The position numbers and the translations under genes are program-made. Shown here piece by piece: positions 1 through 56,829 of a DNA stretch of 64,000 nucleotides. Position 1 is the stretch's first letter; each line of letters opens with the position of its first letter. The notes under the pieces were generated by a model that was given only the letters and a program-made list of their open reading frames with translations, had not been told where the DNA came from and did no database searches. The stretch comes from Candidatus Omnitrophota bacterium (lineage in GTDB: Bacteria; Omnitrophota; Gorgyraeia; JABMRN01), in contig JAQVOV010000001.1 in the NCBI GenBank assembly GCA_028702395.1, positions 3,990 through 67,989 on the forward strand, written 5' to 3'.

Positions 1-1189
1 ATATATATTTTTGTTCTATTTTAAAGGATATTATAATGATAACAACAAAAAATATTATATTTCAGCTGCTTTTTTCACAGCATGTGCAGTTTTGACCAAA
101 GGGCCTGTAGGGTTTATCTTGCCGGCTTTTATAATCTTTTTATTTTTAATATTAACAAAAGATTGGAAAGCGATATTTAAATATTCATGGCTCGAAGGGG
201 CTGTTATCTTTTGTCTAGTTGCATTACCTTGGTTCATTGTTATGACAAAAGTTTATGGCCAGGACTTCACAGGACATTTTTTTGGATTTCAGAATGTTAC
301 CAGATTCCTACAGCCAGAACATAAGGGAAGTGATATAATTTTTTATTATGTTCCTATTGTGATAGTAGGGTTTTTACCTTGGATATTATTTCTGCCCTAT
401 GCCGTTACTGAGTTAGTGAAAAAAGATAAGCAGAATATTAAAAAGCATTTAATGCTTGTTTTATGGATAGGTGTATTCTTTGTGTTTTTCTCCATATCAA
501 AAACAAAGTTACCGACATACATTTTCCCTCTTTTTCCTGCTCTGGCAATATTAACAGGAAGGTTTCTTGATATCGTGTGGGAAAACAAAATTATGTCTAA
601 AACGGAAAAAAGCATAGGCATGCTTTTGCCATTATCATTTTTTATTGCAACAATAGTCGGATATTTTTTGGCAAAGCACAAATATCCTTTAATGAGTTCT
701 GCAATTATATTTAGCGGAGTAGTTCTTTGTTTTAGCACCCTCTTTTGTATGATACAAGGGCTTAAAAACCAAAAAAAAGGATTTTATTTAGGGATAGTTT
801 GTTCTATGATACTAGCAATAATGTTATTAAATAGTGTTTTGGCAAAGCCTATTGGTTTGTATGAATCTTCGAAATATTTTGTTGAAAAAGCAAATGAGCT
901 GAAATTGCCGGATGAAGTTTTGGGAGGAGAAGATGACAATAGAAGAGGGATCGCTTTTTATGCAGATATAGAAAATGTTCCTGATCTGCATGATCAAAAT
1001 ATTCTTAATAAGTTCATACTATCTGAAAAAAGAAATTGGGGAATAATGAAAACAAAAAACCTGGATTTCCTATATGAATATTATAAAGATTTTAAACCAA
1101 CATACATTGTTTATAAAATGGGAAAAAAGGTCCTTTTCACGAACAAGAAGCCGGATCAAGATGTTCCGTATATAGTTAAGGGGAGTTAA
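1..1189 (+). CDS. ArnT/PMT-family (GT39/GT83-like) polytopic membrane glycosyltransferase, likely 5'-truncated by the window edge
   Basis: Long open frame from the window start. Many hydrophobic TM segments with short loops and a C-terminal soluble domain, the architecture of undecaprenyl-/dolichyl-phosphate sugar transferases. Followed by GT2 and deacetylase genes. Confidence 0.55.
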   Translation, partial: YIFLFYFKGYYNDNNKKYYISAAFFTACAVLTKGPVGFILPAFIIFLFLILTKDWKAIFKYSWLEGAVIFCLVALPWFIVMTKVYGQDFTGHFFGFQNVTRFLQPEHKGSDIIFYYVPIVIVGFLPWILFLPYAVTELVKKDKQNIKKHLMLVLWIGVFFVFFSISKTKLPTYIFPLFPALAILTGRFLDIVWENKIMSKTEKSIGMLLPLSFFIATIVGYFLAKHKYPLMSSAIIFSGVVLCFSTLFCMIQGLKNQKKGFYLGIVCSMILAIMLLNSVLAKPIGLYESSKYFVEKANELKLPDEVLGGEDDNRRGIAFYADIENVPDLHDQNILNKFILSEKRNWGIMKTKNLDFLYEYYKDFKPTYIVYKMGKKVLFTNKKPDQDVPYIVKGS

Positions 1190-1386
1190 TAGGAGTTCGA
1201 AACCAGAAAACAGAAGCCAGAAGCCAGAAGCCAGAAGCCAGAGAACTCTTAATACGTTTTTATCTTTAAATCAATTAATACTGGTCACTGGTCACTGGTC
1301 ACTGGTCACTGGTCACTGGTCACTGGTCACTGGTCACTGGTCACTGGTCACTGGTCACTGGTCACTAAACGATATAAGGGAGTGAA

Positions 1387-2103
1387 ATGAAAGAATACAG
1401 TATATCATTCGTGCTGCCTATGTATAACGAAGTTGCAGGCATAGCCGACACAATAGAAGAAGTCAGGATCATAGCAAAAGCATTAACAGATAATTATGAG
1501 ATAATTATTTCTGATGATGCCAGCACAGATGGTTCTTATTCAAAAGCAATGGAATATGCAAAAAAAGATGCTAATATAAAAGTGATAAAAGTTCCCAAAA
1601 ACACAAAATTCGGAGGAGCTTTAGCCAATGGATTGATAAATGCGCAAAAGGAGATCATTATTTATACAGATTCGGATCTTCCTATAAGTCTATTGGATAT
1701 AAAAAGATCTCTGCCTATGATAGAAGGTGCAGATATTGTTTCTGCTGCAAGCATTGTTCATAAAGGAGAAACGATGAAAAGGAAGATAATTTCATTTGGA
1801 TACAATGCTCTTTTAAGGATGTTTTTCGGTATGAAATTAAAAGATGTAAATTCAGGGTATAAAATTTTCAGAAAAACTGCAATTGAAGGGATGAGCTTTT
1901 TATCAAAGAGTCCTTTTATTGATGCTGAGATCTTTGTAAAAGTTTTAAGAAATGGCGGAAAGATAGTACAATACCCAATCGTGTTCAGGAACAGACGAGC
2001 AGGGGAATCAAGTATCGCCAGAATGCCTATTATAATACAAACATATTTGGATATGATGAAGTTCAGAGTTTGGTTGACTGGTAAGCCGGTAAAAAAGAGT
2101 TAA
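1387..2103 (+). CDS. Family-2 glycosyltransferase (dolichol/undecaprenyl-phosphate sugar synthase, ArnC/DPM1-like)
   Basis: N-terminus has SFVLPMYNE...IISDDASTDGS and DSDL motifs typical of GT2 polyprenyl-phosphate glycosyltransferases. SD-like GGGAG lies 8 nt upstream. Confidence 0.75.
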   Translation: MKEYSISFVLPMYNEVAGIADTIEEVRIIAKALTDNYEIIISDDASTDGSYSKAMEYAKKDANIKVIKVPKNTKFGGALANGLINAQKEIIIYTDSDLPISLLDIKRSLPMIEGADIVSAASIVHKGETMKRKIISFGYNALLRMFFGMKLKDVNSGYKIFRKTAIEGMSFLSKSPFIDAEIFVKVLRNGGKIVQYPIVFRNRRAGESSIARMPIIIQTYLDMMKFRVWLTGKPVKKS

Positions 2104-2230
2104 TATTCGGTTAGTGATTAGTGACTAGTGATTAGTAATTAGAATAAATTGATCTTAAGATAAAAATCCTATAGACTTTTCTAGTCACTTATCACTAGTC
2201 ACTAGTTACTATATCTTATAAAGGGAGAAA

Positions 2231-3092: not shown

Positions 3093-3557
3093 ATGACAAA
3101 CAAAAAAGAAGATAATCTTATAGTTACTAACAGAAAAGCTCGAAGGGATTATATAATAACAGAGACCTTTGAAGCGGGAATAATGCTCACAGGTACGGAA
3201 ATAAAATCCTTAAGAGCTAAAAAAGCCAGCCTAAGTGATAGCTTTGCAAGAGTTGTCAAAGGAGAGATCTTTTTGTATAACTTCCATATAGGGGCATATG
3301 AATTTGGTAATATTCATAATGTAGATCCTCTAAGAGAACGAAAACTGCTTTTACACAAAAAACAGATCCAGAAAATATTCGAAAAAAATCAAACCAAAGG
3401 TATGGCAATTGTTCCTTTGAAAGTATATCTTAAAAGAGGACTTGCGAAAGTTGAAATAGCTCTTGGCCAGGGAAAAAAGTTATACGATAAAAGAGAAACC
3501 ATAAAAAAACGACAGGCTAAAAGGGAAATAGACAGAGAAATGCGTAATAAAAAGTAG
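3093..3557 (+). CDS. smpB: SsrA-binding protein SmpB
   Basis: Full-length similarity pattern to SmpB (TNRKARRDYIITETFEAGIMLTGTEIKSLR...). Basic C-terminal tail. A tmRNA is found elsewhere in the window. Confidence 0.9.
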   Translation: MTNKKEDNLIVTNRKARRDYIITETFEAGIMLTGTEIKSLRAKKASLSDSFARVVKGEIFLYNFHIGAYEFGNIHNVDPLRERKLLLHKKQIQKIFEKNQTKGMAIVPLKVYLKRGLAKVEIALGQGKKLYDKRETIKKRQAKREIDREMRNKK

Positions 3558-5948: not shown

Positions 5949-6437
5949 GCCTTTCCACACCGTATAACTTTTCATGACGATCCTCCGCACAATAGATTTG
6001 ATATGGCTTAGAAGTCAGAGGTCAGAAGGGGCAGTTATCATTAAAAACACTGCTTATGAAAAAGATCCCTCGTAAGCGAAACACAGGTGTTTCGTAATTA
6101 CTCGGGATTGATTAAAGAACTTTTTTTATTCAAAAAAGCCTATTATTCAAAGAGGTGATCCCTCGGAAGGAAAAAGCAGTGCTTTTCCCATCTCCTAGGG
6201 ATTAATTAAAGAACTTTTTTATTAAAAAAAGTTCTTCTTAATTAAAAAAACAAGTGATACAATAAAACCATAGAAGGTTTCCCTGCTGTGTTCGCGATCG
6301 AGGTTTTGATATTTTAGCCTATACTAAAATATTGGGAGCCTAACTCTAGCGTTCTCGAGGGATCGTTAGGAGGGCACCCCCCTTAATCTAAAGGGACTAT
6401 AATATTTGATCTCTAACGGCATAAGCAGGGTTTTTTA

Positions 6438-6467
6438 AAAAGGTGAGCAACAGCTCACCTTTTTTAG
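6438..6467 (+). terminator. Rho-independent terminator-like hairpin (GGTGAGCAACAGCTCACC + T-run)
   Basis: Perfect 7-bp GC-containing stem followed by TTTTTT. Lies just upstream of the IR element preceding rarA. Confidence 0.5.
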
Positions 6468-6660
6468 AGACCAGTGACCAGAGACCAGAATAAATTGATT
6501 TAAAGATAAAAGATACAAAGATACAAAGATAAGAAGTTTTTAAAAGGTATAAAGATTTAATAGAAATTCGTAATTTAATCTTAGGATGAATGTTTTAAAG
6601 ATAACCGGGATACAAAATGTTCTGGTTTCTGGTCTCTGGTATCTGGTTTCTAAACGCTAT
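6463..6660. repeat. Type-A inverted-repeat element (heptad GACCAGA/TCTGGTC arms around a TTGATTTAAAGATAAAAGATA core) in the rarA 5' region
   Basis: Left arm gaccagtgaccagagaccagaa, right arm ttctggtttctggtctctggtatctggtttc. Ends ...aaacgctatgaacggagttag ATG. Homologous elements at 2101, 31188, 35037, 47375. Confidence 0.8.
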
Positions 6661-6672
6661 GAACGGAGTTAG

Positions 6673-9155: not shown

Positions 9156-9383
9156 ATGGTGAAAAAATATGTAAGCCCCACAATGAAAGCAGTCGAACTT
9201 GAACCAAAGCAAGCAATAATACAAGTTTGTGTAATTGGCGGAGTATATATGAGAAATGTTCCTCTTGCCCCTATTTGTTTTCCGGCAGGAACAGACATGA
9301 CAGGAATATGTTCTGTTTCAGTAAAAGGACAAGAAACAGGGAGCGTATCTCTTTCCCCTGTTGGTGAACTGCCAGGATCATAA
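9156..9383 (+). CDS. Small Cys-containing peptide, paralog P1 of a 7-member family (leader-peptide precursor-like)
   Basis: AAGGAG SD 8 nt upstream. N-terminus MVKKYVSPTMKAVELEPKQAIIQVCVIGG matches the family consensus. Two core Cys, VKGQ motif, C-terminus ...PGS. Confidence 0.5.
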   Translation: MVKKYVSPTMKAVELEPKQAIIQVCVIGGVYMRNVPLAPICFPAGTDMTGICSVSVKGQETGSVSLSPVGELPGS

Positions 9384-9398: not shown

Positions 9399-9665
9399 AT
9401 GAATTGCCCCTACAAAAAAACAAAGGTAAAAATGCATAATTGTTCACAATGCCCTAAAAAACATTCTTGCGATAGCGAGTTAAACACAAAAGATACTTTA
9501 AAAGCTATCCTAAAAATTTTCATTATGCCTTTTTTTTTGTTTTTAATAGGTATTACCATAGGCGTTGCACTGTTCTCTAAAAACGAGTTTCGCTATTTAA
9601 TAGGGTTTATGTTAGGGTTTATGTTAATTGTTCTTAATTTTGTAGTTATAAGGCAACCGAAATGA
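9399..9665 (+). CDS. Small membrane protein with Cys-rich N-terminus (C-x10-C-x2-C-x4-C) and two TM helices
   Basis: Sequence features only. Resembles RseC-like small redox membrane proteins in architecture. Confidence 0.3.
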   Translation: MNCPYKKTKVKMHNCSQCPKKHSCDSELNTKDTLKAILKIFIMPFFLFLIGITIGVALFSKNEFRYLIGFMLGFMLIVLNFVVIRQPK

Positions 9666-9845
9666 GTATTGAGTAGTATGTCTGTGCGTCATGAGTATTG
9701 CGTCATGGGTAATGTGTCTGAGTGTCTTGTGTCCGCCTGCAGGCGAGACAGGTTTGCTGTGGAATTCTAAAATGTAGTTTTCCTCAAAAGACGCAGTACT
9801 CATTACACACTACTCATGACACACAGACACATTACCCATGACCCA
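9663..9845. repeat. Inverted-repeat element of GTCATGA/GTGTCT-type heptads in the ccdA 5' region
   Basis: Left arm gtcatgagtattgcgtcatgggtaatgtgtctg. Right arm cagacacattacccatgacccatgacac, ending 10 nt before GGAGG-ATG. Confidence 0.75.
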
Positions 9846-9865
9846 TGACACGTTTGGAGGTTAAC

Positions 9866-10552
9866 ATGACAGAGAATGTTTCTGTTTTCATGGCTTTTGG
9901 AGCAGGGCTTGTTTCTTTTTTTAGCCCGTGTGTTTTTCCTTTGATACCGGCCTTTTTATCGTATTTAACAGGCATCTCTTTTTCTAGCATTGAGAACATT
10001 TCTTTGGAAGAGAAAAAGGAAATAAGACGAAAAACAATAAACCATACCTTATGGTTTATTGGGGGATTTACAGTTGTTTTTGTTTTGCTTGGTCTAACTT
10101 CCAGTTTTGTAGGAAAATTCTTTTTACAATATCAAAAGGTATTCCTTAAGATGGGCGCGGTCTTAATAATTTTCTTAGGCCTGTTCGTTATGGGATTATT
10201 AAAAATACCTGCAATGGCTAAACATGCACAAATTGATTATCGCAAGAAAAGAATAAGCTATATTGGTTCCTGCTTAGTTGGAATGAGCTTTGCCTTTGCA
10301 TGGACCCCATGCGTAGGGCCTATTCTGGCTTCAGTTTTAATATATGCAAGTTCTGCTGCCAGCATGCAAAAAGGAGCTTTTCTTTTGGCTGTATTTTCAT
10401 TGGGAATGGGAATTCCTTTTTTAATAGCAGCAATTTTCATAAACTCTTTTTTGTTGATTTTTTCAAAAATAAAGAGGATAATAAAATATGTAAATATATT
10501 ATGCGGGATAGGGTTGGTTGTTTTTGGTATTTTAATATTAATAGGGAGGTAA
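9866..10552 (+). CDS. ccdA: Cytochrome c biogenesis/thiol-disulfide transporter CcdA (DsbD transmembrane domain family)
   Basis: SPCVFPLIP and WTPCVGPIL Cys motifs in TM1/TM4. GGAGG SD 5 nt upstream of the ATG at 9866. Confidence 0.75.
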   Translation: MTENVSVFMAFGAGLVSFFSPCVFPLIPAFLSYLTGISFSSIENISLEEKKEIRRKTINHTLWFIGGFTVVFVLLGLTSSFVGKFFLQYQKVFLKMGAVLIIFLGLFVMGLLKIPAMAKHAQIDYRKKRISYIGSCLVGMSFAFAWTPCVGPILASVLIYASSAASMQKGAFLLAVFSLGMGIPFLIAAIFINSFLLIFSKIKRIIKYVNILCGIGLVVFGILILIGR

Positions 10553-13028: not shown

Positions 13029-14597
13029 ATGGAAACGATCAGTATCGCACATATCGGATTGGCCATAATAGGCGCATCGTTCTTTTTTGCTATAGGTTAT
13101 GTTTTAAGGAAATATACAGCAAAAGTGAAAATAAAAAAAGCAGAAGAAAGATCCAAACATATTGTTGAGGAAGCTCGTAAAGAAGCAGAAGCACGTAAAA
13201 GGGAATCTCAATTGGAAGCAAAAGATCTGCTTCTAAAGATGAGAACAGAATTTGAGAATGAGTCAAAAGGAAGAAAGCAAGAAGTTGCTATGATGGAAAA
13301 AAGACTTATTCAAAAGGAAGAGAATATTGATAGAAAAGTTGATCTTATAGATAAAAAGGAAAGGGATCTTGAGAACAGGAAAAAAGGTTTAGCAGAAAAG
13401 GAAAAGACTCTGACTGATAAAGAAAAAGAAATGGAAAGACTTCTTTTTGAGGAGAAGGAGAAACTGCAGAAAATTTCAGGGATGTCCAGAGATGAAGCCA
13501 GGCGAATTCTTTTACAAAGAATGGAAGAGGAAGTTAATAGGGAAGCAGCTGCTATGATACGCAAGACACAGGAAGAAGCAAAAGAAAAAGCAGATAAAGA
13601 AGCAAGAAAAATAATAGGGCTGGCAATTCAAAAATGTGCAGCTGATCACACGACTGAAACGACAGTAAGTGTTGTGAACCTTCCATCAGATGATATGAAA
13701 GGGCGTATTATCGGCAGAGAAGGAAGAAATATCAGGGCACTTGAAATGGCAACAGGAATAGATGTTATTATTGATGATACGCCTGAAGCAGTTATTCTTT
13801 CAGGATTTGATATGATGAGAAGAGAAGTTGCAAGAATTACACTGGAAAGACTTATTGAAGATGGAAGGATCCATCCCGGCAGGATCGAAGAGATCGCAGA
13901 AAAAGTAAAAGCTGAACTGGAACAAAGTATTAAAGATGAAGGGGAAAAAACCCTTTTTGATCTTGGGATACATGGCGTTCATCCTGAGCTTGTTAGGTTA
14001 GTGGGAAGATTGAAGTATAGAACAAGTTATGGGCAAAATATATTACAGCATTCAAAAGAAACTGCATGGCTAATGGGCACAATGGCAGGGGAATTAAGAT
14101 TAGATCCTGTTCTTGCAAAGAGAATGGGTATTTTGCATGATATAGGTAAAGCTGTAACGCATGAAATAGAAGGTCCTCATGCTAAACTTGGGGCAGACCT
14201 TGCAAAGAAATATAAAGAAAGTGAATCTGTTATACATGCTATAGAGGCACATCATAATGATATTGAACCGAAAACTCTTTTGGCAGTACTTGTACAAGCA
14301 GCAGATGCTATTAGCGCTACAAGGCCTGGAGCAAGAAGAGAGTCTTTAGAAACATATGTTAAAAGATTGGAAAAACTTGAAGGTATAGCTGATTCTTTTG
14401 CAGGAGTGGATAAATCATATGCTATACAGGCAGGAAGAGAAATACGTATAATTGTTTTTCCTGAGCAGATAGATGATGCGCATGCAACAGTGCTTGCCAG
14501 AGATATAAAGAAGAGCATAGAAGAAGGAATGGATTATCCTGGACAAATAAAAGTAACTGTTATTAGAGAAACTCGAGCGATCGAGTATGCAAAATAA
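13029..14597 (+). CDS. rny: Ribonuclease Y
   Basis: N-terminal TM, long coiled coil, KH domain (GRIIGREGRNIRALE), HD domain (HSKETA...HDIGK). GGAGGG SD before the ATG at 13029. Confidence 0.9.
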   Translation: METISIAHIGLAIIGASFFFAIGYVLRKYTAKVKIKKAEERSKHIVEEARKEAEARKRESQLEAKDLLLKMRTEFENESKGRKQEVAMMEKRLIQKEENIDRKVDLIDKKERDLENRKKGLAEKEKTLTDKEKEMERLLFEEKEKLQKISGMSRDEARRILLQRMEEEVNREAAAMIRKTQEEAKEKADKEARKIIGLAIQKCAADHTTETTVSVVNLPSDDMKGRIIGREGRNIRALEMATGIDVIIDDTPEAVILSGFDMMRREVARITLERLIEDGRIHPGRIEEIAEKVKAELEQSIKDEGEKTLFDLGIHGVHPELVRLVGRLKYRTSYGQNILQHSKETAWLMGTMAGELRLDPVLAKRMGILHDIGKAVTHEIEGPHAKLGADLAKKYKESESVIHAIEAHHNDIEPKTLLAVLVQAADAISATRPGARRESLETYVKRLEKLEGIADSFAGVDKSYAIQAGREIRIIVFPEQIDDAHATVLARDIKKSIEEGMDYPGQIKVTVIRETRAIEYAK

Positions 14598-16794: not shown

Positions 16795-16987
16795 AGTTAC
16801 GCGCTGCGAGCTGCGAGCTGCGCGCAACGCGCGAGAGGAATGTCCTGAACGAGGTTTTGTAGGGGCGTATTGCCCGCCTGCCGGACGGGCAGGCAATACG
16901 CCCCTACCATTCATAAAATTGATCTGAGAACGATCATTAAGCTCGTGGCTCGCTGCGCGAAGCGCGAGGCTCAAATAAGGAGGCTTT
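16795..16987. repeat. Mosaic REP-like element (GC-rich arms GCGCTGCGAGCTGCGAGCTGCGCGC / nested palindrome GTAGGGGCGTATTGCCCGCCTGCCGGACGGGCAGGCAATACGCCCCTAC) inserted between xseA and xseB
   Basis: Terminal GC-rich arms are reverse complements. Central 49-bp nested palindrome at 16859..16907. Confidence 0.8.
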
Positions 16988-20212: not shown

Positions 20213-21502
20213 ATGAGTAATGTAAGAGTAAGATTCGCACCTTCGCCTACAGGGTTTTTACATTTAGGAAGTGCTAGAACAGCGCTTTTTAATTGGTTAT
20301 ATGCCAGACGTGTAGGAGGGACTTTTGTTTTAAGAATAGAGGATACTGATAATCAGCGTTCAAAAAAAGAGTTCCTTGATGAGATATTAAAAGATCTAAA
20401 ATGGATGGGACTTGATTGGGACGAAGGGCCTTTTTTTCAGTCAGAAAGAAGCAGCCTTTATATGCCGCATGCAGAAAAACTTTTAGAAAAAGGGCTTGCG
20501 TATAAAGATGGGGAAGCAATAATTTTCAAAGTAGCAGATGATCAGATCATAGAGGTCGAGGATCTTATACACGGAAAAATAATTTTCAATACAAAGGAGA
20601 TCAAAGATCAAGTTCTGATAAAATCAGACGGCTCTCCTGCTTATAATTTTTGTTGTGTTATTGATGACAATGATATGGGTATCACTCACATTGTACGAGG
20701 AGATGATCATTTGTCAAATACTCCAAAACAGATATTGTTCTATAAAGCCCTTGGATTCAATGTTCCTAAATTTGCACATATGCCTTTAATGATGGGAAAA
20801 GACGGCACAAAACTTTCCAAACGTCATGGAGGCGTGGCAGTTTTTGAATATAAACAGGAAGGTTTTTTGCCTGAAGCTTTAGCAAATTATCTTATGCTTT
20901 TAGGATGGATGCCAAAAGACGGAAAAGAGATACTCGCGCTAGATGAAGCTGTAAAACAATTTGATATCAGTGATATCAATAATGTGCAGGCAAAGTTTGA
21001 TGTAGATAAACTTAAATGGATAAATGGGGAGTATATACGACAAAAAAAAGCAGAAGAATTGAGAGCGCCTATTATGCAGAAAATGGAAGAAGAAGGGTAT
21101 AGAAAAGAAAATATTGACAAAGAGTATCTTTTAAGGATAATAGAGCTTTACAAGGAAAGGTTCAGGACTTTTTCAGAGTTTTTAACACTTACAACATGTT
21201 TCTTTAAAGATGATTATGTGATGGATGAAAAGGCTTTTCAGAAGAACCTTTCTAAAGAAGAATCGAAAAAGTGTTTGGCAGAATTTGCAAAAGCATTAAA
21301 AGAAGTTAAAGAATTCACTTCTAAAAATATAGAAGAGTGCTGTCGAGAGCTTTCCGAAAGAACAGAGATCAAAGCAGCACAATTTATTCATCCTACGAGA
21401 ACAGCTGTAAGTGGAATGCTAGGGGGAGCAGGGCTTTTTGAAATGATGGAGGTTTTAGGCAAAGACAAAGTTATCGCAAGGATGGAGAAGTGGAGTATTT
21501 AG
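20213..21502 (+). CDS. gltX: Glutamyl-tRNA synthetase (catalytic core; short C-terminus)
   Basis: HIGH-type motif (PSPTGFLHLGSARTA) and KMSKS-like (KLSKRHG). Confidence 0.85.
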   Translation: MSNVRVRFAPSPTGFLHLGSARTALFNWLYARRVGGTFVLRIEDTDNQRSKKEFLDEILKDLKWMGLDWDEGPFFQSERSSLYMPHAEKLLEKGLAYKDGEAIIFKVADDQIIEVEDLIHGKIIFNTKEIKDQVLIKSDGSPAYNFCCVIDDNDMGITHIVRGDDHLSNTPKQILFYKALGFNVPKFAHMPLMMGKDGTKLSKRHGGVAVFEYKQEGFLPEALANYLMLLGWMPKDGKEILALDEAVKQFDISDINNVQAKFDVDKLKWINGEYIRQKKAEELRAPIMQKMEEEGYRKENIDKEYLLRIIELYKERFRTFSEFLTLTTCFFKDDYVMDEKAFQKNLSKEESKKCLAEFAKALKEVKEFTSKNIEECCRELSERTEIKAAQFIHPTRTAVSGMLGGAGLFEMMEVLGKDKVIARMEKWSI

Positions 21503-21520
21503 AGAAGACGGATAGCACTC

Positions 21521-22045
21521 TTAAGATAAAAGAATAAAGATAAAAGATAAAAGGGTGGAATGTCCTGAGAGAAGTTTTGTAGGGGCGTATTGCAATACGC
21601 CCCTACTATCCAAAGTTTTCAGGAAGATCCTTAATCTCGTAGCCCGCTGCGCGTGGCGCGAAGCAGGTTTCCAATGAAGCTTTTGTAAATGAAAAAGACG
21701 TTCGAAGAAGAGAAAAGTATTTCAAGACAACTAAAGGAAAAAGAACGTTACGGTTAATGTTAAAAGAGACCTTAGAGAAGACGAATATCTCTCTCTTAAG
21801 ATAAAAGAATAAAGATAAAAGATAAAAGGGTGGAACGTCCCGAGAGAAGTTTTGTAGGGGCGTATTGCAATACGCCCCTACTATCCAAAGATTTCAGGAA
21901 GATCCTTAATCTCGTAGCCCGCTGCGCGTGGCGCGAAGCAGGTTTCCAATGAAGCTTTTGTAAATGAAAAAGACGTTCGAAGAAGAGAAAAGTATTTCAA
22001 GACAACTAAAGGAAAAAGAACGTTACGGTTAATGTTAAAAGAGAC
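21521..22045. repeat. Tandem duplication of a ~275-bp composite repeat unit (K-module + 30-bp palindrome + GC arm + ~100-bp tail)
   Basis: Two near-identical copies, 21521..21772 and 21797..22044, each containing gtaggggcgtattgcaatacgcccctac. Confidence 0.85.
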
Positions 22046-23990: not shown

Positions 23991-24455
23991 AATATTATAA
24001 AGGAGAGGGTCTAATTTGTAAACAAAGAAATTTAAAACACGGAAAAATGTTTGACTGGTTGGTAATTGGCAAAGCGCATATTGCTAATCGCCAATCGCAA
24101 ATTGCCTATCGTAAAGCCTGAAAAAAAATAGCCACGAGCTCCGAGCTGCGTGCCGCGAGCTAGAGGAAAGGGTCTAAATGAGGTTTTACGATTTGCGCCT
24201 TGCGATTAGCGCTTTGCCAATCACCAATCTTTTTGGGCGGTCGGGACGACCGCCCCTACAAAACATCGTTCATGACGTTTTTTTAGCTCGTCGCTCGCGG
24301 CGCGTAGCTCGTAGCACAAATCCAGTTTTCCACAGCAGACACAGTACTCATGACACAATGACTCATTACTCAGTACCCCTGACAGGTTCTTTATTTGCTT
24401 ATTGTATACCAATATGCTATAATTAGCAGATAATACAAAAGGTATTAACTATTTT

Positions 24456-39184: not shown

Positions 39185-39430
39185 CTAGCTTGGTGCTGCT
39201 GATTGAGCAAGATCTCCTCCAATCATCCTCATAGGGGAGTTACCCCCTGCTGCGCCTTTTGGAGTAAGTTGACATTCCATAGCAGGTGTTCCTGTTATAT
39301 TACCACAGAAGTTTACTCTCAGTGTTGTCTGATAGTATAAATATAGACCTCCAATTGCACAAATTGCTAAGATGGATTGTTCTGGGTGAAGTTGTATTGC
39401 TTTTATTTTCGGCTGTATATATTTTCTCAT
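39185..39430 (-). CDS. Small Cys-containing peptide, paralog P3 (leader-peptide precursor-like)
   Basis: MRKYIQPKIKAIQLHPEQSILAICAIGGLY... matches the family consensus. FC and EC core Cys, TPKG motif, C-terminus ...APS. Tandem with P4. Confidence 0.5.
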   Translation of the reverse strand: MRKYIQPKIKAIQLHPEQSILAICAIGGLYLYYQTTLRVNFCGNITGTPAMECQLTPKGAAGGNSPMRMIGGDLAQSAAPS

Positions 39431-39583
39431 TTTTCCTAACTTTCTAAATATTAAGTGTAGCATTTTTTACTTAGCAATGCAAGAAGAAAGGGATAATTTA
39501 AAAAGAAACTTATTAAGTATCATTATATTGTATAGAACCTTTTGATACTTGTCAATTAAAAATGAAATGTAATATAGAGGGGT

Positions 39584-39814
39584 TTAGCTTGGTGGCATGC
39601 TATTGGAGACAGACGTCATCATATCCATGTTTACATTTATTCCGTCTCCACCTTTTGGGGTAAAATTGCAAAGAGGACCATCTCCCGAAAACTGTCCACA
39701 CCAAGCAGAGATGGATCTGCTTACATACAAACCACCAACCTTACAAACTTGTAGAAGTGCTTGTTTTTGGTCAAGTTCAATAGAGTTTATTTTTGGCGCT
39801 GTGTATTGTTTCAT
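39584..39814 (-). CDS. Small Cys-containing peptide, paralog P4 (leader-peptide precursor-like)
   Basis: MKQYTAPKINSIELDQKQALLQVCKVGGLY... matches the family consensus. WC and LC core Cys, TPKG motif, C-terminus ...PPS. Confidence 0.5.
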   Translation of the reverse strand: MKQYTAPKINSIELDQKQALLQVCKVGGLYVSRSISAWCGQFSGDGPLCNFTPKGGDGINVNMDMMTSVSNSMPPS

Positions 39815-40150
39815 AAATAAAGTATATCAGGAGGCAAGTAAAAAGGCAAAAGGAAAAAGCAAAAAATAGTTTAACTAGTTGTTACTTGGCAAAGCGCATA
39901 TCGCGAATCGCATATCGTAAAGGGTGGGGATTTTTGCCACGAGCTGCGCGCTGCGCGCAACGCGCTAGTTGAACGTACTGAATAGGGATGAGATGCGTGT
40001 TAGAGACCAGAGACAAGAAGCAAGAGAACTATATATACGGCTTATCTTTAAATCAATTAATACTGGTCACTGGTCACTGGTCACTGGTCACTGGTCACTG
40101 GTCATTTGTTTCATATGGACTCATTGTTCCTGTTAAGCTATAATGAACCT

Positions 40151-42040: not shown

Positions 42041-42429
42041 GGGGGTGTCCGGAATCGACTTAGACATTACAGGCTTTAAGTTGCATGTAGCGGATGTCAG
42101 TTGGCCGCTTAAAATAACTGGCAAAAACACAAACGCAAAATACGATTCAGTAGCCGAAGCAGAAGCAATTCTAGCTGAGGATGCGTTACAAGTTCCTCAA
42201 TTTGAAGGAACTGGTTCTCTAGTAAGCGCTTTGGCTTATTAATAGGACTTAATCTAACAAAGACGATTAATAGTGTTGCTGTAGCATTGTTGATCGAAAG
42301 ATTACAGCTGCTTGTACATATATCCTGTTTGCCGGAGATATGTGCAAAAAGACAAATAACAAACTAAACATGTAGATACTTTTAGTTTGATGTCCGAGGA
42401 CCGGGGTTCGAGTCCCCGCACCTCCACCA
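42041..42429 (+). ncRNA. ssrA: tmRNA (ssrA), ~389 nt
   Basis: 5' GGGGGUGUCCGGAAUCGAC pairs with the 3' end ...CACCUCC-A-CCA, including the G3:U70 Ala identity pair. 3' T-arm GGACCGGGGUUCGAGUCCCCG matches tmRNA. Internal reading frame ends ...SALAY with double stop UAA-UAG (42240..42245). smpB is present at 3093. Confidence 0.85.
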
Positions 42430-47049: not shown

Positions 47050-47370
47050 ATGGTTTTTTCGGAAAAACTAAAAAAACAGTTTAAGGATCTTATTTCAAGT
47101 CGTAGTGGTCTTTATTTCAAAGACTATGACCTACAAACTTTAGAAAAAACAGTTGTTCTTAGAACACAACAGCGTAGATGCGAGTCTTTCGAAGAGTACT
47201 ATTCATACTTGATTGCTTCCAAAGAAAAAGAATCTGAATTTCGAGAAATAATCAATCTTTTAACTATACAGCATACATGTTTCTTCAGAAATGAACCGCA
47301 ATTTAAAGTTCTAAAAGAAAAAGTTCTTCCAGAGATATTATTAGATACGATCGAAAGGTTGATAGGGTAA
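47050..47370 (+). CDS. CheR N-terminal (all-alpha) domain-only protein; likely a remnant of a chemotaxis methyltransferase
   Basis: HTCFFRNEPQFKVLKEKVLPEI resembles the CheR N-domain. Only 106 aa, with no SAM-MTase domain. An IR element follows immediately. Confidence 0.4.
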   Translation: MVFSEKLKKQFKDLISSRSGLYFKDYDLQTLEKTVVLRTQQRRCESFEEYYSYLIASKEKESEFREIINLLTIQHTCFFRNEPQFKVLKEKVLPEILLDTIERLIG

Positions 47371-47614: not shown

Positions 47615-47989
47615 ATGGCAAAAAAAGTATTGTATATTGAGGATTCACCTACTGATGCCGTTCTTATAAAAGAGCTTTTAGAAAAGGCAGGATTAGATGT
47701 TACGATAGCAAAAACAGGAAAGGAAGGAATAGAAAAAGCCAAAGAGATCAAGCCTGACCTTGTTCTGCTGGATTGTATATTGCCTGATATAAGCGGATTT
47801 GATGTTTGTTCAAAAATTCGTAAAGATGGCAGCCTTCATAAGACATTGATCATAATGATAACTATAAAAGATAGCTTGGATGAGATATCAAAAGCTTTTA
47901 TATTGGGCGCAGATGATTATGTAATAAAACCGTCTATGCCTGAATTTTTAGTAAGAAAGATAAAATTGTATTTAAATGAAAAAAGGTAA
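47615..47989 (+). CDS. Single-domain response regulator (CheY-like receiver)
   Basis: EDSPTD...LDCILPD...KPS receiver motifs. Confidence 0.8.
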   Translation: MAKKVLYIEDSPTDAVLIKELLEKAGLDVTIAKTGKEGIEKAKEIKPDLVLLDCILPDISGFDVCSKIRKDGSLHKTLIIMITIKDSLDEISKAFILGADDYVIKPSMPEFLVRKIKLYLNEKR

Positions 47990-47996
47990 GGGTTAT

Positions 47997-48178
47997 TGCA
48001 AAAACAATAAGTGTTTTAATAATTGATGATTCCTGTTTAATACGGGAGCTTGTGATGGCGCTTTTAACAGCAGATAATGATATTTAAGGCATAGCAACTG
48101 CAGAGAATGGGAAAGAAGGATTAGCAAAGGTAGAACCATATGATGAAATAGAGAGGTTGTTAAGCGAGTGAGTGATGA
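47997..48178 (+). pseudogene. CheB/CheY-like receiver gene fragment (no start codon, in-frame TAA, truncated by repeats)
   Basis: Translation AKTISVLIIDDSCLIRELVMALLTADNDI*GIATAENGKEGLAKVEPYDEI resembles the CheB N-terminus (VLxVDDSxxxRxxLxxxLxxDPDIEVVGTAxNG). It runs into the repeat block. Confidence 0.45.
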
Positions 48179-56639: not shown

Positions 56640-56689
56640 GCTAAGCCACGTGCAACGAGCTAGTGTAACGTACTGAATAGAGTTATAAG

Positions 56690-56815
56690 GGGTTAGTTAT
56701 TAGTGTGTGTTATTAGTGTGAGTAAACGAAGATGCCTAATAGAATTGATTTTAAAACCGTGTTTAGGAGGATCTTTCACACACACTCACACAAATAACTC
56801 ACACTAAATCATATA
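56690..56815. repeat. Inverted-repeat element of GTGTGAG/TTATTAG-type heptads upstream of the tandem-REC gene
   Basis: ttattagtgtgtgttattagtgtgagt ... cacacacactcacacaaataactcacactaa. Ends ~15 nt before GGGAGAAAAA-ATG. Confidence 0.75.
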
Positions 56816-56829
56816 AAACGGGAGAAAAA

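Follow-up and report, generated by a model that had tools for sequence, protein, structure and literature searches.

Type A heptad palindromes between the genes of an Omnitrophota genome: candidate spacer elements with their own Shine-Dalgarno sequence

Several described families of bacterial repeats lie between genes. The Correia elements of Neisseria (Correia repeat enclosed elements, CREE, or neisserial miniature insertion sequences, NEMIS) are intergenic, 100-250 nt long, bounded by inverted repeats and often found immediately upstream of genes; they may add promoters, are co-transcribed, form hairpins that RNase III cuts, and show presence/absence polymorphism. Among repeats with a 7-nt unit, the short tandemly repeated repetitive (STRR) heptamers of cyanobacteria are intergenic and form hairpins between hupS and hupL, where a role in transcript stability or translational coupling has been suggested (PMC2670836). 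Heptanucleotide long simple sequence repeats (LSSRs) come from the work of Mrazek (2007), in the form in which PMC4679880 summarises it, and TAACTGA-type heptamers are direct repeats upstream of start codons in Beggiatoaceae, cyanobacteria and Bacteroidetes (PMC4679880). The hmw (ATCTTTC)n repeat of Haemophilus influenzae forms one arm of a hairpin in the 5′ untranslated region (5′UTR); RNase III processing there sets expression, and the hairpin is needed for repeat-number change (PMC12721329). Here we describe a repeat family in a 64,000-nt stretch of a Candidatus Omnitrophota bacterium (contig JAQVOV010000001.1, positions 3,990 to 67,989), hereafter the window. Its Type A elements are copies in which mirrored runs of 7-nt units surround a conserved core, wedged between neighbouring genes.

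An initial annotation had named five Type A sites (2101, 6463, 31188, 35037 and 47375) with a common architecture, and this layout was seen at all five: left heptad arm, core, inverted right arm, Shine-Dalgarno (SD) sequence and ATG, in that order. The elements, with the parts of the first, are as follows.

2096..2230, plus strand: Type A element before ydjC; its left terminus, AGAGTTAATATTCGG, includes the TAA stop codon (2101-2103) of the upstream GT2 gene
2111-2144, plus strand: left arm of this element, TAGTGAy heptads
2145-2178, plus strand: core of this element, AATAAATTGATCTTAAGATAAAAATCCTATAGACTTT
2179-2211, plus strand: right arm of this element, CTAGTCA-type heptads
2223-2227, plus strand: SD sequence GGGAG in the right terminus of this element, with the ydjC ATG at 2231
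6463..6672, plus strand: long Type A element from the 6S RNA terminator to rarA/mgsA, with GAGACCA/TCTGGTC arms
31175..31311, plus strand: Type A element from the gcvH stop to the gcvPA ATG; core start 31227, right terminus CTAAATGCTATAAAGG
35033..35206, plus strand: long Type A element from lplA to lipA, with a degenerate core, AATTGATTTAAAGAAAA
47371..47614, plus strand: long Type A element from an open reading frame (ORF) with a CheR_N domain only to a response-regulator gene; GAGACCA-type arms with three variable positions per heptad

Read through from 2101 to 2230, the first element runs from the TAA stop over TTAGTGA-type heptads, the core and CTAGTCA-type heptads to CTATATCTTATAAAGGGAGAAA-ATG; the 6463 element has AAAGATAC 8-mers after its core plus a nested terminus junction. 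Common to the five elements is a 17-nt core, AATTGATYTWAAGAWAA. At no more than three mismatches the 17-mer AATTGATTTAAAGATAA occurs 10 times against 2.5 expected, a count reached by none of 100 shuffles; six copies are exact. One of the ten is not a true core; of the other nine, the plus strand carries five (Type A) and the minus strand four. An inverted-repeat finder returned arms of 28-42 nt with 75-89% complementarity in all five elements, and the arm heptads follow the logo [T/A][G/A]A[C/T][T/C]AG, in which the final AG is invariant and the A at position 3 nearly so. The SD-bearing end, initially described as invariant, is a conserved motif that does contain the SD sequence, CTAAAyGCTATAAAsGGAG, with zero to three mismatches per copy (right endings TCTTATAAAGGGAG, CGCTATGAACGGAG, TGCTATAAAGGATA, GGCTATAAACGGAG and TGCTATAAAGGAGA). 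Between copies, conservation is 93% in the core, 86% in the right arms and 76% in the left arms.

Three more Type A copies were found at other loci (L023, L024 and L025). Four independent assemblies from three samples (L016, L017, L032 and L051) reproduce the elements base for base, and shuffles fall far short of the observed counts. The notion that they are an assembly artefact or low-complexity sequence arising by chance, which would draw on the facts that short-read contigs break inside the elements and that the lengths of perfect arrays come from short reads, is effectively refuted for the elements themselves. A scan for the core across 185,579 species genomes returned chance or coding matches only (Prochlorococcus; a Nitrospinae gvp gene), and a scan of metagenomes gave four true loci only, all from Ga0172381. 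Viral contigs gave three single-match loci, taken as chance, one of which shares its contig with a metagenome coding match. A core profile (nhmmer) found no match in five related loci, BLAST against phages gave no matches, BLAST against plasmids gave only heptad arrays in Bernardetia, and exact-protein look-ups for the flanking genes 1387-2100 and 47615-47986 found nothing. In these scans the core was not seen outside its own Omnitrophota lineage.

The position of the elements was compared in the gcv-lpl-lip operon. Pfam confirmed the gene names, with gcvT, gcvH, gcvPA, gcvPB, lplA and lipA consecutive. The junctions of this operon measure -32 to +66 nt in five loci from related Omnitrophota metagenome-assembled genomes (MAGs; L045, L047, L048, L049 and L050) and are mostly ATGA or TAATG overlaps; the same junctions in the window measure 111, 137, -10, 162 and 174 nt. 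Four of the five are enlarged, each by a heptad palindrome, and two of these palindromes are Type A. A comparison of orthologous junctions for empty sites, as had been suggested, gave element-free compact junctions in all five relatives, from which it follows that the window elements are derived insertions inside the operon. The xseA-xseB and rny-ymdB pairs are also split by elements. Most copies lie between cistrons of such conserved operons, so the 5′UTR setting that had been assumed for them does not hold. Integron attC sites were considered and rejected, since the genes on either side belong to core metabolism and keep a conserved order.

The same comparison bears on the SD sequence. In the relatives the gcvPA SD (AAGGAG) lies within the last gcvH codons, with a TAATG overlap. 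In the window the homologous AAGGGG still encodes the GcvH end, but it is ~150 nt from the gcvPA ATG, so the working gcvPA SD must be the one in the right terminus of the element. The 16-nt right terminus occurs 11 times against 2.05 expected, at gene starts after heptad elements only and not at the other ~39 starts, which upholds the proposal that the elements deliver an SD. Collectively, the comparisons show derived insertions that span whole junctions, from stop codon to SD, in operons that were ancestrally compact and translationally coupled, and that have a stop-containing left end and an SD of their own at the right end. The gcvPA gene itself is broken in the window by an in-frame TAG TAA at 31972-31977, with reading resumed in another frame near an A5G4 run (31960-32000); it is intact in the relatives, at 443-445 aa. 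Sequencing error, decay to a pseudogene and programmed frameshifting could each account for the break.

Our preferred reading, in which we place about as much confidence as doubt, is that a clade of Omnitrophota carries palindromic spacer elements built from heptanucleotide arrays and that Type A forms a subfamily of them confined to one species. The elements would be self-contained intercistronic spacers, probably forming hairpins. Arrays may arise and lengthen by 7-nt replication slippage; template switching, or ectopic recombination among elements with common termini and cores, may mirror and spread them, and they would then decay through GC-to-AT transitions. An element would be co-transcribed with its operon; the 28-58-nt arms could then form a long imperfect hairpin with the insert looped out, placing the upstream stop near the unpaired SD of the element, and the downstream cistron would therefore still be translated. 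The hairpin might also act in RNA processing or stability, as a site of the RNase III/RNase Y type, and the elements would persist as expression-neutral sequence and not each as a regulator. In the best-supported account, the elements would have invaded gene junctions and been tolerated thanks to the stop and SD signals that they supply and to their folding away, with any effects on RNA processing or promoter activity being secondary.

Type A is one subfamily of a larger mosaic repeat system of nested heptad palindromes. Tandem Repeats Finder (TRF) reported 44 period-7 arrays in the window, which has 35% GC and nearly all genes on the plus strand, against 0-6 (~2.5 on average) in 20 dinucleotide shuffles. 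Manual reading of the spacers of at least 40 nt found nested heptad modules in ~24 of 39 (~7.5 kb). Arrays on the left are purine-rich, with their complements on the right (AAAGGAA/TTTCCTT, CGCATAT, GAGCTGC and ATGAGTA types); further modules include a GGTGGAAnGTCC module and GTAG-tagged palindromes, and the modules are nested like onion shells and sometimes interleaved. Elements of this wider system include the following.

9662..9846, plus strand: heptad/14-mer palindrome before ccdA, ATGAGTA/GACACAT type, 58-nt arms, 78% complementary, ending before GGAGG-ATG
16795..16987, plus strand: xseA-xseB spacer element, GAGCTGC-type heptad arms around a GTAG-tagged palindrome
30692..30802, plus strand: gcvT-gcvH spacer element, GTTATCT/ACAGATA heptad palindrome
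34088..34233, plus strand: gcvPB-lplA spacer element, AAAGGAA/TTTTTAC heptad arms enclosing a GGTGGAAGGTCC module and the GTAG-tagged palindrome GTAGGGGCGTATTGCAATACGCCCCTAC; end GGTATAAAGGAATCAA-ATG
56680..56829, plus strand: heptad/13-mer palindrome before the tandem-REC gene; left terminus AGAGTTATAAGG, centre AATTGATTTTAAAA, end CATATAAAACGGGAG

The three of these that had been flagged as further heptad inverted repeats (9663, 30693 and 56690) do end just before a GGAG(G)-ATG. Period-7 arrays number 6.9 per 10 kb in the window and 5.8, 4.9 and 4.2 per 10 kb in the related loci L047, L045 and L049; three of four unrelated control loci had none, and the fourth, a Nitrospinae locus (L005), had 2.5 per 10 kb. 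The relatives carry stop-to-SD heptad palindromes of their own. Heptad arrays are best read as a trait of a whole clade within Omnitrophota, with Type A as its apparently species-specific subfamily. In L045, two heptad arrays in different spacers (9937-9968 and 13188-13218) are ~91% reverse-complementary (ATTGCAGATTACAAATTGCATAT against the reverse complement ATTGCAGATTCCAGATTGCATAT) and flank a 3.2-kb gcvH-gcvPA-gcvPB block. Within the window, a 275-bp unit between gltX and a tRNA gene (21499-22045) is tandemly duplicated at 97% identity, each copy with AAGATAA heptads, a GGTGGAA module and a GTAG palindrome.

Closely related strains differ in these spacers. L017, a JGI contig obtained from a different sample, matches the window at 99% identity, and its 31188 Type A element is 100% identical. 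In its gcvT-gcvH spacer the 30692..30802 element is wholly replaced by an unrelated GAGCTGC-type heptad palindrome, the swap reaching from inside the last gcvT codons to just before GGAGGATAACATG (SD). In L032 the 2101 element is at the same site, and identity to the window is 100% over 1933-2253 and ~80-85% beyond (compared to 3742). This step would be either a recombination boundary beside the element or a strain-merge/chimeric contig. Purifying selection on the element was rejected as an explanation of the identity, as the tract also covers upstream coding DNA and ends 22 nt inside ydjC. Between L048 and L049, which are 80-82% identical, L049 has a ~320-nt heptad-bearing insertion that is absent in L048. 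An identical 28-nt heptad array, AGCTCATAGCTGATAGCTCATGGCTCAT, is present at non-orthologous loci in L047 (14-41) and L049 (8466-8493), whose coding DNA is 73% identical, and points to transfer between lineages or strong constraint.

Arm variation is mostly G/A or C/T, mainly transitions toward A/T, and the perfect arrays use the GC-richest units (TGACCAG and TGACTAG); this pattern would be expected of young arrays that drift toward AT as they decay. The elements turn over fast: strains that are 99% identical differ by a whole spacer, and perfect arrays of 6-19 copies are present. One might go further and propose that the clade actively rewrites its spacers, with stop-to-SD units made, mirrored, core-inverted and exchanged by a dedicated mechanism, as a layer of operon punctuation or phase variation and not as passive junk DNA; we consider this improbable.

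A different account of the elements is that each is a portable expression cassette, with the core as a sigma-70 promoter, the left heptads as an activator or UP-like array, the right heptads as a 5′UTR and the terminus as the SD, so that each gene would have its own transcription start. Heptad arrays upstream of a -35 hexamer are known at ctxAB. The core is the most conserved part, conservation is higher in the right arms, the ones that would be transcribed, than in the left arms, and the SD borne by the element is an observed feature that such a cassette would share. The promoter itself is the difficulty. The initial annotation had placed TTGATC-N16-TATAGA in the core. That pair was seen in no more than two of the five elements, 2101 (spacer 15) and 31188 (spacer 16). 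TTGATY-N17-TAGAsT, the best pair of hexamers, matches the consensus at 8 of 12 positions, compared with 10-11 of 12 for the canonical promoters evident before several other window genes. This pair with its 17-nt spacing recurs in 2101, L023, L024 and three of the four minus-strand cores, which counts for the cassette; it is missing from 6463, 35037 and 47375, where no -10-like hexamer lies at that distance, and in 31188 the spacing is 18 nt, off by one base, and the hexamer ends in A.

A promoter scanner called none of the five Type A elements and found promoter-like sites no commoner in the window than in shuffles; the sole core that it called is a minus-strand one at 40056-40028 (TTGATT-17-TATAGT). 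Within the core, spacer and hexamers are equally conserved, which a simple promoter would not predict. Four well-preserved cores point away from genes and would fire antisense into upstream genes or into an insertion sequence (IS), and the operons that contain most of the copies do without an internal promoter in five relatives. The sigma70 promoter claimed for the core is thus not borne out, and we regard the cassette as unlikely. The 6463 element and L024 stand directly after strong intrinsic terminators (hairpin z-scores -8.0 and -4.9), so some promoter activity stays conceivable, and weak activity of the core in some copies is a doubtful but somewhat better prospect. The 6S RNA gene directly upstream of the rarA element (6277-6466; Rfam 65.5 bits) has a canonical terminator. 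Three other candidate sites were rejected: a sigma-54 promoter in the right arm lacks the GG/GC spacing, a -10 box at the right-terminus TATAAA paired with a -35 heptad would be spaced at 15 nt or worse, and an integration host factor (IHF) site in the core misfits the consensus by eye.

The four minus-strand cores (1260, 36584, 38901 and 40042), which the initial annotation had not listed, lie in composites, each between a GAAGCCA/AGAAGCA array and a perfect ACTGGTC or CTAGTCA array.

1182..1386, termini on the plus strand as in Type A: inverted-core composite running from GGAGTTAATAGG to CTAAACGATATAAGGGAG-ATG, with six copies of GAAGCCA, the core at 1243-1279 on the minus strand, and 12.4 perfect copies of ACTGGTC at 1280-1366
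36495..36750, core ~36566-36604 on the minus strand: inverted-core composite between the convergent lipA and GNAT genes, with five copies of AGAAGCA and 15.6 perfect copies of CTAGTCA at 36605-36713
38830..39051, core ~38886-38921 on the minus strand: inverted-core composite downstream of the IS110-family element, with 18.6 perfect copies of CTAGTCA at 38922-39051
39975..40105, core ~40028-40061 on the minus strand: inverted-core composite with 6.1 copies of ACTGGTC at 40062-40104

No gene start follows the second or the third, and the gene downstream of the fourth has its own TGGACT-17-TATAAT site at 40116-40144. When an inverted composite was compared with Type A by BLAST, the core and adjoining array aligned on the opposite strand (93% over 43 nt), and the other array and both termini aligned on the same strand; the core therefore occurs in both orientations within one frame of termini and arm types. 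ACTAGT is palindromic, and the (CTAGTCA)n arrays at 36605-36713 and 38922-39051 are accordingly self-complementary at six of seven positions, so that left and right Type A arms of the CTAGTCA type are both direct and inverted repeats of one another.

Two orientations would be expected of an inverton-like switch in which the ~38-nt core flips between inverted heptad arrays and turns a weak promoter toward the gene (ON) or away from it (OFF). The five plus-strand and four minus-strand cores lie within like-oriented termini and arm types, and one inverted copy precedes a glycosyltransferase gene, a class that is often phase-variable. The two orientations are found at different loci and never at one locus, and three alternative assemblies match the orientation in the window. 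The arms of inverted copies are complementary at only ~4-5 of 7 positions per heptad, no invertase was found among the window ORFs scanned, where the sole recombinase is the IS110 transposase in its own IS, and the switch also depends on the putative promoter. We judge it very improbable.

All elements are predicted to fold as long imperfect hairpins, with the SD outside the hairpin in 10 of 12 predicted folds. Minimum free energies (MFE) gave a mixed picture for the two strands: the plus-strand fold was better in nine of 12, and 31188 and 35037 folded better on the minus strand. Rfam searches at gathering and E-value thresholds gave no bacterial family, only sub-threshold look-alikes of microRNA (miRNA) hairpins. 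The GcvH of the window is 100% identical to P0001, from a Candidatus Omnitrophica MAG. With the next GcvH relative at 68% and the closest LplA at 50% identity, an orthologous covariation analysis was impossible, and covariation was assessed on paralogous copies only.

Several observations weigh against the spacer reading. RNAalifold on four paralogous copies found none of 32 predicted pairs to be compensatory, and the arm mismatches (19 G·U, 21 A·C and 49 other) have no G·U bias. The higher likeness of right arms than of left arms between copies tells in the same direction, as do arm sets that are interleaved rather than nested (24059-24315), where a simple hairpin is a misfit. The hairpin would thus be a physical consequence of the inverted arrays and not a demonstrably selected RNA structure. 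Co-transcription is not assured for the two copies after intrinsic terminators, the better conservation of the core than of the arms hints at a function outside the spacer model, and short-read assembly could have given wrong lengths for the long perfect arrays. Finally, the flanks of nine copies, compared by eye, had no consistent direct repeat that could be a target-site duplication, only TTAA/TAAA-like ends that belong to the termini, and no transposase linked to the elements was found; the window has a single IS, which is of the IS110 family and has unrelated ends. The initial description of the elements as recombining is supported: the corresponding junctions of the five related MAGs lack them, and one spacer is swapped at 99% identity.

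The lack of pairing covariation in the arms would suit a reading in which the heptad arrays are binding sites for a sequence-specific DNA- or RNA-binding protein, for example a translational regulator near the SD, with the inverted layout allowing two-sided binding. Each heptad has fixed positions (the final AG and the A at position 3) while others vary, and two genera whose genes are 73% identical share the 28-nt array including its variant pattern. There are precedents for such binding in PMC4679880, where it was proposed for TAACTGA repeats, and in bioRxiv 10.1101/2022.06.06.494920. Dozens of unrelated heptads in one window would call for many binders or a single very loose one, some arrays (36605 and 38922) lie between convergent genes, away from any start codon, and no candidate protein was identified. 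We regard protein binding as an improbable basis for the arrays.

The IS110-family element and a few neighbouring features were recorded for context. The former lies outside Type A:

37395..38682, plus strand: IS110-family insertion sequence, transposase at 37463-38533 (DEDD_Tnp_IS110 and Transposase_20), 14-nt terminal inverted repeats ATGGTAACCAGTTG / CAACTGGTTACCAT

It sits exactly within a GTAG/GGGC palindrome module, of which an intact copy is present at 36292-36345, and this insertion mirrors the known preference of IS110 for repetitive extragenic palindromic (REP) sequences. Two features lie near the 47375 element: the 106-aa ORF at 47050-47370, with a CheR_N domain alone, ends at the element, and a decayed response-regulator fragment (47990-48150) follows the intact regulator gene, which suggests gene erosion around elements. 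Four paralogous small Cys-containing ORFs (9156-9383, plus strand; 22383 onward, plus strand; 39185-39463, minus strand; ~39600-39822, minus strand) share the motif P.IK...L.P.Q.i...C.IGG.Y and have no Pfam match; the listed plus-strand ORF 39597-39869 is apparently the antisense of one of them. A tmRNA gene (42041-42429) and smpB (3093-3557) are also within the window.

Omnitrophota are abundant, mostly uncultured ultra-small bacteria, and our literature search found no paper on such elements in Omnitrophota. In this one lineage, ~60% of the larger spacers are filled with nested heptad palindromes that bear translation signals, including spacers in housekeeping operons whose genes ancestrally overlapped. 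The lineage offers many loci, clean empty sites and strain-level swaps with which the role and spread of heptanucleotide repeats (STRR, TAACTGA and hmw-type) could be followed. In practice, short-read assemblies of these MAGs break at the elements, and predicted gene starts are displaced by them. Should the elements prove regulatory or actively rewritten, operons would be under a new kind of control; should they only be tolerated, they would show how selfish DNA that carries an SD gains entry to coupled junctions between genes.

Compared with the described families, the window elements resemble Correia elements and miniature inverted-repeat transposable elements (MITEs) in being intergenic, bounded by inverted repeats (arms of 28-58 nt, 75-89% complementary) and present or absent between relatives. 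They differ in that target-site duplications are missing, the window has no cognate transposase whose ends match, their arms are variable heptad arrays and not fixed terminal repeats, and they span exactly from stop to SD. Similar to the REPs and bacterial interspersed mosaic elements (BIMEs) of proteobacteria, they are high-copy extragenic palindromes, form mosaics between operon genes and are targets of an IS110-family element. The nested GTAGGGGCG...CGCCCCTAC module of other spacers is a GTAG-tagged palindrome as in REPs (PMC3733652, PMC2817692), and the IS110-family element lies inside one. Type A, in contrast, has no GTAG or CGTC tag, is AT-rich and consists of 7-nt arrays, and REPs supply no SD. 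No gene for a REP-associated tyrosine transposase (RAYT, Y1 transposase) was found among the ~40 window ORFs scanned against Pfam.

With the TAACTGA-type repeats the window shares heptad arrays facing a nearby start codon and a patchy phylogenetic distribution. Those repeats are direct only and usually lack a canonical ribosome-binding site, whereas the window has inverted pairs, a core and a strong SD; the TAACTGA unit is absent from the window, the nearest being GATAACA at 30763. On the Bernardetia sp. plasmid NZ_CP147018.1 (L052, 471375-471420) a perfect (TTAGTGA)n array runs directly up to the start codon of a gene for inositol monophosphatase, one of 16 such places on the plasmid; this is the Type A arm unit, so the same heptad recurs across phyla. 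In the hmw repeat, too, heptamers stand upstream of a gene and supply one arm of a long RNA hairpin. This repeat is a single phase-variable locus with a G-rich tract as the second arm, whereas the window has dozens of loci, including housekeeping operons, with a hairpin that is only predicted.

The STRRs and LSSRs share the tandem 7-nt units in intergenic DNA. The units in the window (TGACTAG, TGACCAG, GAAGCCA and others) are not STRR1-3, and the host is an Omnitrophota bacterium and not a cyanobacterium. Type A elements differ further in their nested inverted shells around conserved cores with stop/SD termini, the two core orientations and the spacer swaps. The unit CTGGTCA is one base from STRR2, which we take to be TTGGTCA. 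Tested against the marks that define each family, Type A has neither the target-site duplication of a MITE nor, within the window, its parent IS, nor the GTAG tag of a REP, and it answers to the generic description of STRRs and LSSRs alone: tandem 7-nt units, intergenic, far above chance (44 arrays against ~2.5) and hairpin-capable between the cistrons of operons.

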